Shown: positions 7,937 to 9,894, counted from the first letter of the stretch. The stretch is DNA of 64,000 nucleotides from Escherichia coli (GCF_003991155.1 NZ_CP031293.1); one strand, 5' to 3'. Program-made: numbers and translations. The notes: generated by a model not told the origin, from the letters alone.

Positions 7937-8646
7937 AAATCGAACTGACGGTGAATGGACTAAAGGTACAGGCGCAGTACTCTGATGATGAAATTGAAAA
8001 TGTACATAAACCATTGCTGCGTATGCTGGCGGCCTTACAGACAGTAAATCCGCAGCGGCGTACGGTGGTTTTTCTTTGCGCTCCGCCGGGGACGGGTAAA
8101 TCTACCCTAACCACCTTCTGGGAATATCTCGCGCAACAAGACCCGGAACTGCCCGCTATTCAGACGCTGCCGATGGATGGTTTTCACCATTACAATAGCT
8201 GGCTGGATGTGCATCAATTGCGACCCTTCAAAGGCGCACCAGAGACATTCAACGTTGCGAAACTGGCGGAAAATCTGTGCCGGGTTGTGGAAGGGGATTG
8301 TACGTGGCCGCAGTACGATCGACAAAAGCATGATCCTGTTGAAGATGTGTTGCACGTTACCGCACCACTTGTCATCGTCGAAGGAAACTGGTTGTTGTTG
8401 GACGACGAGAAGTGGTGCCAGCTTGCGCAATTTTGTGATTTCTCGATCTTTATCAAAGCTCCCGCATCTGCGTTGCGGGAGCGTCTGGTGGGGCGCAAGC
8501 TGGCGGGAGGGTTATCGCTGGCAGACGCAGAAGCCTTTTATGACCGTACCGACGGGCCGAATGTTCGCCGGGTGCTGGAAGAGAGTCTGCCTGCAAATTT
8601 GACCTTAATGATGACCGCTACGGGTGAATATCGTCTGATGGATTAA
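7933..8646 (+). CDS. yggC: P-loop nucleoside/pantothenate-kinase-like protein, 237 aa
   Basis: ORF 7933..8646; Walker A (CAPPGTGKST); start overlaps the yggD stop by 4 bp. Confidence 0.85.
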   Translation: MKIELTVNGLKVQAQYSDDEIENVHKPLLRMLAALQTVNPQRRTVVFLCAPPGTGKSTLTTFWEYLAQQDPELPAIQTLPMDGFHHYNSWLDVHQLRPFKGAPETFNVAKLAENLCRVVEGDCTWPQYDRQKHDPVEDVLHVTAPLVIVEGNWLLLDDEKWCQLAQFCDFSIFIKAPASALRERLVGRKLAGGLSLADAEAFYDRTDGPNVRRVLEESLPANLTLMMTATGEYRLMD

Positions 8647-9250
8647 CGTTCCTGATTACACCATCTTCCAGTCGCACCACACGAGAGAAATGACGCCGGG
8701 TAAATGCGGCGTCATGACTGATTGCTACGACGCTCGTGCCTCGCTGGCGGCACTTTTCCAGCCAGCTTTCAAACACGCTCAACCAATTTTCGTCAAAATC
8801 CCGACTCGGCTCGTCCAGTAGCAATAGGGGTGGAGAGAGTGCTTCCAGGCTGGCGACGGCGACCATCCGTCGCTGCGCACTATGCAGATCTAACGGATGC
8901 GCGCTGGCAGTGTCTGCTAACTGGCAGCATTGCAGGGCAGCATTGGTACGTTGAGTGATTTCATCCGCCGGGCATTTTTGCAGTTTCAAACCAAATGCGA
9001 TCTCGTCAGCAACAGTGCTGTGAAAAAGCTGGTTTTCCGCGTCCTGAAACAGTACGCCAATCTTTGCCGCGCGCTGGCGGTTTTTCAGGTTTTTCATCGC
9101 TTGTTGTTGCAGCATAACCGTACCGGCTGTGGGCGTAAGAAGACCTGCCATTACTCGTAACAGCGTCGATTTTCCCGCGCCAGGCCAGCGATAAGATATC
9201 TGATTTAACGTTAACATAGTGGCTGGAGCGCTCCGTTTTGCAATTGCCAC
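8618..9250 (-). CDS. ABC ATPase domain, second half of a probable fused ECF-transporter ATPase; likely degenerate
   Basis: ORF 8618..9250; ABC signature-like LDLHSAQRRMV and Walker B LLLLDEPSRDFD present, but the P-loop reads RWPGAGKST (first Gly lost, preceding strand missing); overlaps the upstream ATPase ORF by 40 nt in another frame and the 3' end of yggC by 29 bp. Confidence 0.5.
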   Translation of the reverse strand: MAIAKRSAPATMLTLNQISYRWPGAGKSTLLRVMAGLLTPTAGTVMLQQQAMKNLKNRQRAAKIGVLFQDAENQLFHSTVADEIAFGLKLQKCPADEITQRTNAALQCCQLADTASAHPLDLHSAQRRMVAVASLEALSPPLLLLDEPSRDFDENWLSVFESWLEKCRQRGTSVVAISHDAAFTRRHFSRVVRLEDGVIRNVNPSDDIHP

Positions 9251-9894
9251 GCTTGCTGGCAGTGGTTCAGGAAAGGTGTGTGATGACGTTCAAAAAGAAT
9301 AATCAGCGAACCACGTTCAAGCGCCCAGTGTTGTAAGCGCTGCAACAGCATTTCGCGGGCCTGCGGCGTCAGGCGGCTAAAGGCTTCATCAAGAATTAAG
9401 AGCTTTGGCTGCATCGCGATGGCGCAGGCGATGACCACACGCTGTGTCTCTCCACCGGAGAGTGTTGCCGGGTGACGATGGCGCAACGACTGGCACTCGG
9501 TCAGGGCCAGGGCGGCGTCAATCCGCGCCATAATCTCTTTTTCAGCAAGACACAGATTTTCTGGCCCAAAGGCAACTTCTTCTTCCACGCTAAAGGTACA
9601 GCCGGAGAGCTGCAAATAGGGCGATTGCTGGACGAGCTGGATGGTGGCGGATTGTTCATTAAGCGGGAGACGCCCAATGGGCGTACCGAGAAGCGTCCCC
9701 GTGCCGGTTATCTCTCCTGGTAGAAAGTCCGGATACCAGCCCGCCATCAGCTGCGCCAGCGTACTTTTGCCACTGCCGTTGTCACCAAAGATGGCGACCA
9801 TCCCCGGTTTGACATAGTGAAAGTCATAACAGAACGGAGGATGCGTTGAGTGTGTCGGGCAATAGCGAAACTGTTCTAACGTAACCATATCCAC
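9211..9894 (-). CDS. ECF/ABC transporter ATP-binding domain, 227 aa
   Basis: ORF 9211..9894; Walker A GDNGSGKST, signature LSGGETQRV, Walker B LLILDEAFSRL; start overlaps the upstream T-component stop. Confidence 0.7.
   Translation of the reverse strand: MDMVTLEQFRYCPTHSTHPPFCYDFHYVKPGMVAIFGDNGSGKSTLAQLMAGWYPDFLPGEITGTGTLLGTPIGRLPLNEQSATIQLVQQSPYLQLSGCTFSVEEEVAFGPENLCLAEKEIMARIDAALALTECQSLRHRHPATLSGGETQRVVIACAIAMQPKLLILDEAFSRLTPQAREMLLQRLQHWALERGSLIILFERHHTPFLNHCQQAWQLQNGALQPLC

Follow-up and report, generated by a model that had tools for sequence, protein, structure and literature searches.

A rare in-frame deletion in the second ATPase gene of an accessory ECF-type transporter cassette of Escherichia coli that most likely inactivates the transporter

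The window, i.e., the whole stretch of 64,000 nucleotides that was analyzed, is part of an E. coli chromosome, and its region 8400-11700 (3.3 kb) was found by genome comparison to be 100% identical to strain FDAARGOS_1284. A five-gene cassette occupies positions 8618-11616 on the minus strand as a tightly packed operon encoding a PCC-domain protein, an ECF S component, EcfT, EcfA and EcfA'. It is flanked by epd, which is divergent, and yggC, which is convergent. The genes concerned are the following:

11185..11616, minus strand: PCC/PPC (PF03479, DUF296) domain protein, the first cassette gene (annotation)
10584..11162, minus strand: ECF S component (PF12822) (annotation, profile match)
9876..10583, minus strand: ecfT, CbiQ-like transmembrane T component, overlapping the start of ecfA by 13 nt (annotation)
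9211..9888, minus strand: ecfA, first ECF ATPase, 225 aa, intact (annotation, alignment)
8618..9217, minus strand: ecfA', second ECF ATPase, deletion allele of 199 aa as opposed to 225 aa, identical to RefSeq WP_023152185.1
7933..8646, plus strand: yggC, P-loop nucleoside/nucleotide kinase family (annotation); convergent with ecfA', whose 3' end it overlaps with its last 29 nt (8618-8646)

When the longest ORFs are called, two minus-strand ABC-ATPase ORFs are recovered, at 9211-9894 and 8618-9250, exactly where an earlier note on this DNA had placed them. The overlap of 40 nt in a different frame that was also described there results from taking the ORF at its longest, from GTG 9250, while the real start is ATG 9217. 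All EcfA' orthologues begin with MLTLNQ at the position equivalent to this ATG, and the RefSeq annotation agrees. For ecfA the start is ATG 9888, GTG 9894 being discarded. The two genes thus meet in a much shorter element:

9211..9217, minus strand: ATGTTAA, 7 nt in which the stop of ecfA overlaps the start of ecfA' (sequence); the same overlap is present in orthologous loci

Start/stop overlaps of this kind are typical of translational coupling, and the arrangement is consistent with ecfA and ecfA' being coupled in this way. At the other end of ecfA', the 29-nt overlap with yggC at 8618-8646 had been correctly noted before. It is also 29 nt long and identical in O157:H7, and 32 nt long in Salmonella. 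The EcfA' tail encoded over yggC varies between genera in the alignment and is of low confidence in the AlphaFold2 model. In Klebsiella pasteurii the cassette does not have yggC as a neighbour, and EcfA' is shorter there. The convergent overlap is a conserved, unremarkable feature.

Concerning family placement, the best NCBIfam matches were ECF_ATPase_1 and ECF_ATPase_2 (TIGR04520/TIGR04521), and EcfA chains in the PDB were matched with E-values of approximately 1e-30. The scores were 126 bits for EcfA, 125 bits for the deleted EcfA' and 150 bits for the intact EcfA' against curated equivalog cut-offs of 315-330. These scores lie far under the TIGR04520/TIGR04521 cut-offs and mark the proteins as a divergent subfamily. 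The nearest NCBIfam model for the S component is the CD3073 family, again with a score under the curated cut-off. The ATPase genes adjoin those of EcfT and the S component, and in orthologous loci the neighbours match PF02361 (weakly) and PF12822. The gene for the PCC-domain protein also keeps its position in the cassette in Salmonella, K. pasteurii, more distant relatives and a contig carrying a fused ATPase gene. Judged by profile matches and gene context, the pair appears to act like EcfA/EcfA', in the same gene context, and to represent a divergent dedicated subfamily.

The earlier note had interpreted the two ORFs as a decayed fused double ATPase, i.e., as the remains of a once-fused YkoD-like gene that was split by a frameshift and damaged by a deletion. 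Fused forms do exist in this family. A library-wide HMMER search retrieved P0124, a protein of 503 aa from a metagenomic contig, in which an EcfA-like N-terminal half is joined through a linker of about 55 aa to an EcfA'-like C-terminal half, and the gene lies in the same PCC-S-T context as the split cassette. In addition, many of the more distant top matches are fused double ATPases. However, the two-gene form (225 + 225 aa with a 7-nt overlap) is the standard one and is carried by approximately 3,310 complete E. coli genomes; the RefSeq annotation of O157:H7 and strain 317 lists two ATPase CDSs of 678 nt each, overlapping by 7 nt. The same geometry was found in Salmonella (L005), in K. pasteurii (L007) and in a 58%-identical relative (L015), while in another relative (L016) the overlap is 17 nt. 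Two ORFs with a 7-nt overlap are present in orthologues from four genera and from a more distant relative, and neither a single fused ORF nor a frameshift scar was found among them. Likewise, the 120 best clusters of homologues, which are 69-98% identical to the query and 170 to 279 aa long, contain no fusion.

Selection and the fine structure of the locus also argue against a broken fusion. Pairwise dN/dS values of 0.05-0.27 for ecfA and ecfA' indicate purifying selection on both genes, every orthologous EcfA' has its own MLTLNQ start, and no linker remnant is present between the two genes. Moreover, the sole lesion in the window relative to intact alleles is an in-frame deletion, so that the frameshift suggested earlier between the two ATPase halves is not there. 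We thus regard descent from a decayed fusion as very improbable; for the enterobacterial locus, the conserved split architecture refutes it. Fusion occurs in the EcfA/EcfA' family, yet the ancestral state of the enterobacterial locus was not a fused one; there the split pair is the widespread and selected form. The solved ECF complexes, too, have been described with EcfA and EcfA' as separate subunits (PMC3971661). None of the three features (two ORFs, start/stop overlap, convergent yggC overlap) should be taken as decay, all of them being normal and conserved. Two observations had been named in advance as pointing to a functional split form, namely a two-ORF architecture conserved under purifying selection and a conserved RWPGAGKST motif. 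The first was found, whereas the second was not, RWPGAGKST belonging to a rare allele present in 9 of 5,426 genomes.

What distinguishes the window is the internal structure of ecfA'. Alignment to the intact alleles of O157:H7 and strain 317 revealed that exactly 78 nt, i.e., 26 codons, are missing in frame. A small internal deletion and the loss of the strand preceding the P-loop had both been suspected from the sequence, and both are borne out by this gap. The unusual second P-loop RWPGAGKST was read correctly as well, the relatives having GDNGAGKST. In intact alleles, the direct repeat TGGCGCGG bounds the lost segment, its two copies lying 78 nt apart. The extended repeat TGGCGCGG[C/G]AA is exact over 8 nt and matches at 10 of 11 positions overall, and it is the only repeat in the 200-nt stretch. 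The elements at the junction are:

9175..9182, minus strand: deletion junction, the single remaining copy of the 8-bp repeat TGGCGCGG (alignment, repeat search)
9164..9190, minus strand: remnant P-loop RWPGAGKST, in which Gly-Asp-Asn of Walker A is replaced by Arg-Trp-Pro from the end of β1 (alignment)

Replication slippage or microhomology-mediated deletion classically leaves such a footprint, with a single repeat copy at the junction. We infer that slippage or microhomology between the two TGGCGCGG repeats would have removed the 26 codons of ecfA' in frame. Outside the gap, ecfA' is nucleotide-identical to the intact allele of strain 317, and the deletion is therefore recent. In the AlphaFold2 model of the intact 225-aa EcfA' (pLDDT 92.8), β1 spans residues 2-9, β2 19-26, β3 31-35 and helix 1 42-49. 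According to this model the lost residues 13-38 (GAATDCLCDISLQLKQGEWLALTGDN) take in strands β2 and β3 and reach three residues into Walker A (GDN of GDNGAGKST). Within the deleted segment, GEWLALTGDNGAGKST is nearly invariant across Escherichia, Salmonella, Citrobacter, Atlantibacter, Leclercia and Klebsiella in the alignment.

The distribution of the allele was determined with a 44-nt junction probe, which spans the deletion and is unable to seed on intact alleles, in 5,426 complete E. coli genomes. The junction was detected in the nine genomes BH100 (three entries), K-15KW01, HB37, FDAARGOS_1284, 82.0311/82.0312 and YP3, while the intact 78-nt segment was present in 3,310 of the 5,426. The exact 199-aa EcfA' was additionally found on 223 public contigs (NCBI, ENA and Logan assemblies), and in the 100%-identical genome FDAARGOS_1284 the gene is annotated with the same 199 aa, 26 aa fewer than in intact alleles. 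The possibility that the deletion is a sequencing or assembly artefact is practically negligible, given that the same junction recurs in nine complete genomes from different laboratories and countries and that the 223 contigs stem from independent assemblies.

Five of the junction genomes (K-15KW01, HB37, YP3, BH100N and 82.0311) were fetched and found to be 99.7-99.97% identical to the window over 12 kb. Together with the window they carry one cassette haplotype with a single SNP, nearly all other differences falling in the fbaA-pgk tract. A single origin of the deletion is therefore indicated; recurrent independent deletions at the repeat were also considered, and were rejected on account of the common haplotype and the clustering of differences in fbaA-pgk. 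BH100 and K-15KW01 belong to B2/ST127 (PMC11203468). The isolates with the deletion allele come from Switzerland, China, Australia, Brazil and the USA, and from human, dog and chicken hosts. Given this spread, the allele is at least not strongly deleterious.

The cassette is present between epd and yggC in approximately 3,320 of the 5,426 complete E. coli genomes (about 61%), and homologous loci were found in other Enterobacteriaceae, while K-12 and approximately 2,100 other complete genomes do not have it. It is thus an accessory, dispensable locus whose presence or absence is polymorphic in E. coli. Its dispensability follows from its absence from these genomes as well as from the existence of other damaged ecfA' alleles, two of which (P0008 and P0012) were encountered among the homologues. 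As regards the K-12 state, a simple deletion scar was considered. The 3' third of yggC in K-12 is a diverged yet full-length homologous allele, which argues for allele replacement instead of clean excision. What the window shows is a gene defect of an ordinary, strain-level kind in an accessory micronutrient-type (ECF) transporter, rather than a decayed fusion gene, and the deletion would mean that a dispensable accessory locus has recently lost its function in this lineage.

The consequences of the deletion depend on how the ATP sites are shared between the two subunits. In an ABC dimer, each ATP site combines three elements from one subunit (Walker A, Walker B and the H-loop) with the signature contributed by the other (see also PMC3971661). 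The respective motifs are located as follows:

9760..9786, minus strand: EcfA Walker A GDNGSGKST (sequence, alignment)
9448..9462, minus strand: EcfA signature LSGGE, consensus-type, which would complete the EcfA'-centred ATP site (sequence)
9286..9294, minus strand: EcfA FER, with Arg at the switch-His position in every family member (alignment)
8873..8887, minus strand: EcfA' signature LHSAQ (consensus LSGGQ), the form LH[STA][AG]Q being conserved family-wide (sequence, alignment)
8810..8827, minus strand: EcfA' Walker B LLLLDE, intact (sequence, alignment)
8792-8806, minus strand: EcfA' D-loop SRDFD, after Walker B (sequence)
8711..8719, minus strand: EcfA' H-loop SHD, switch His present and conserved (sequence, alignment)

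The Walker A GDNGSGKST, signature LSGGE and Walker B LLILDE of the first ATPase are intact, as had been reported; its D-loop reads SRLT. The switch-His position reads FER in EcfA; EcfA' has SHD there, and a related fused ATPase has FEH. Neither subunit holds a complete set of NBD motifs, given that EcfA is without the switch His and EcfA' has LHSAQ, while in the window the Walker A of EcfA' is in addition truncated. FER in EcfA and LH[STA][AG]Q in EcfA' are both maintained in E. coli, in relatives of 48-58% identity and in the fused form. In contrast to these two, the Walker A (in intact alleles), Walker B and H-loop of EcfA' and the LSGGE signature of EcfA are canonical. Since the FER of EcfA and the signature of EcfA' are the elements that deviate, both deviations fall in the EcfA-centred site, and the EcfA'-centred site has the consensus. 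Read from these motifs, the EcfA-centred ATP site appears to be degenerate and the EcfA'-centred site consensus throughout the family, and the latter would be the only hydrolysis-competent site. The coexistence of consensus and degenerate ATP sites is a general principle in ABC heterodimers and has been described for exporters (PMC3971661).

Given that the deletion removes the P-loop anchor of the consensus EcfA'-centred site, it most likely destroys this site, and the transporter would be inactive in this lineage. Transport on a single ATPase domain seems unlikely, since what survives is the degenerate, EcfA-centred site. A different outcome could be envisaged if β1 (LTLNQISYRW) replaced β3 before the P-loop, or if EcfA' were merely a structural partner, so that the deleted protein would still be functional, at least partly. 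The deletion allele does stay in frame with its ORF open, and GAGKST, the Q-loop, Walker B and the H-loop are retained. PGAP annotates the deleted ecfA' as an ordinary gene without a pseudogene flag, under the RefSeq name "ABC transporter ATP-binding protein". In AlphaFold2 the remaining domain of the deleted EcfA' is built and its fold preserved, with a pLDDT of 88.4 that falls to 74 over residues 11-20; this is no measure of stability, and the confidently modelled domain reflects the alignment from which the fold is built. The other cassette genes are intact, and the wide occurrence of the allele, in five countries and three host species, could also be taken as a sign of retained function.

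Against such retained function, the 26 lost residues include the most conserved cross-genus stretch of the protein as well as two strands of the domain, and the first glycine of Walker A is gone. Furthermore, the other ATP site is degenerate family-wide, so that an obvious back-up is missing, and the lineage is young (one cassette SNP), so that the lack of further decay is uninformative. We therefore consider a partly or fully working EcfA' unlikely. Our preferred reading, which we hold with good though not complete confidence, is that the region encodes a normal heterodimeric EcfA/EcfA' pair of a dedicated ECF-type ABC importer, and that the in-frame deletion in ecfA' most likely inactivates the transporter. 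In that case a lineage to which B2/ST127 urinary-tract isolates belong would probably have an accessory transporter silenced by the rare deletion, which could also be used to mark that lineage.

Searches for clues to substrate and regulation gave little. An Rfam scan of 7000-13000 did not detect a riboswitch or other RNA family, the one IRES match being at chance level, and thus provided no clue to the substrate. In a consensus scan for promoters and terminators the counts were those of the shuffle background, and the ecfA'/yggC overlap yielded nothing informative. A literature search on the cassette (ECF + yggC, CD3073, DUF296 + ECF, E. coli accessory genome) returned nothing relevant, and in the literature searched no description of an asymmetric-site arrangement for ECF importers was found. 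Tentatively, the cassette may define an uncharacterised ECF subfamily, with an asymmetric ATPase dimer that combines a regulatory degenerate and a catalytic site and is always accompanied by a PCC/DUF296 protein; this is a possibility to which we give less than even chances. If it holds, the ST127-associated 78-bp deletion would be a natural catalytic-site knock-out in an extraintestinal pathogenic lineage, and the deletion strains together with cassette-free strains such as K-12 would form a ready genetic series for studying the substrate and single-site ATP hydrolysis. With its PCC partner, predicted asymmetric ATP sites, fused and split forms and polymorphic presence, the cassette is a modestly attractive target for functional work.

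Compared with known systems, the cassette resembles the canonical EcfA/EcfA' arrangement, as in the Lactobacillus brevis ECF-FolT/HmpT complexes (PDB 4HUQ/4RFS), in having separate ATPase genes beside those of EcfT and the S component (PF12822). However, its ATPases are 225 aa long and match the model only to approximately position 226 of 279, so that the canonical C-terminal extension of EcfA is left unmatched. It also differs from the canonical pair in being dedicated, with its own S component gene and a PCC-domain gene, and in that one ATP site of the pair is, by its motifs, degenerate family-wide; the EcfA' of the window has in addition lost β2, β3 and the beginning of Walker A. Fused YkoD-type ECF ATPases share with it the provision of two NBDs for one S/T pair, and the cassette family itself includes the fused homologue P0124. 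In the window and in all enterobacterial orthologues, by contrast, the NBDs are encoded by two genes with a 7-nt overlap and without a linker. Finally, the clustering of deviations in one composite site (Arg of EcfA and LH[STA][AG]Q of EcfA') is reminiscent of ABC heterodimers of the TM287/288 type (PMC3971661). The review describes such site pairs for exporters, whereas the cassette would encode an ECF-type importer, in which the pattern is read from the sequence.

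The five-gene cassette lies between epd and yggC, with the gene for a PCC/DUF296 (PF03479) protein ahead of those for the S component, EcfT, EcfA and EcfA' of an ECF-type importer. The features discussed in this section are the following:

Window 8618-11616, minus strand: five-gene cassette, PCC gene first, as also in L005, L007, L014, L015 and L016
Window 7090-7426, plus strand: yggF, encoding a glpX-like class II fructose-bisphosphatase, internally deleted by comparison with K-12
L014:2681-4192: P0124, EcfA and EcfA' fused in a single protein of 503 aa

The PCC gene was found in this leading position in every locus compared, a set covering E. 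coli (the window), Salmonella (L005), Klebsiella pasteurii (L007), two more distant genomes (L015 and L016) and one metagenomic contig (L014). PCC-S-T-A-A' is a conserved five-gene cassette. To our knowledge, no role in ECF transport has been described for the PCC/DUF296 partner.

In K-12 the entire cassette is absent, with 284 nt separating epd and yggC, and homology to the window picks up again at about 11767. Comparison of yggC between K-12 and the window revealed nucleotide identities of 81-100%, mostly above 90%, over the 5' two-thirds, and of only 45-74% over the 3' third (window 8395-8646; L004:4977-5228 in the K-12 locus). Whether a genome has the cassette thus goes together with a mosaic yggC allele, a pattern that suggests replacement by recombination rather than simple excision. 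Among genomes sharing the window's ecfA' deletion, the cassette itself is nearly invariant (one SNP at most), and about 30 SNPs are concentrated in fbaA-pgk (window 13400-15200), splitting two sub-haplotypes, namely K-15KW01, HB37 and BH100 versus the window, YP3 and 82.0311. This cluster looks like a recombination tract adjoining the cassette locus.

Relative to K-12, yggF has lost about 638 bp from its interior, and the annotation of the genome identical to the window lists what is left as a pseudogene fragment. Strain 317, whose ecfA' is intact, has the same yggF lesion. Further damaged ecfA' alleles circulate in E. coli, represented by the protein variants P0008 and P0012: one product, of 206 aa, lacks 19 aa across the signature motif, and another, of 194 aa (47 member sequences), is truncated at the N-terminus. 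Their occurrence would fit a dispensable locus that has been eroded repeatedly.

The EcfA/EcfA' family occurs both split and fused, since P0124, in the same cassette context on L014, joins the two ATPases into one protein through a low-complexity linker some 55 aa long. Family-wide, alignments A3 and A6 place Arg at the switch His position of EcfA (window 9286-9294) and LH[STA][AG]Q, not LSGGQ, as the EcfA' signature (window 8873-8887). Judging from these motifs, the importer is predicted to combine one consensus and one degenerate ATP site, an asymmetry shared by the whole family.
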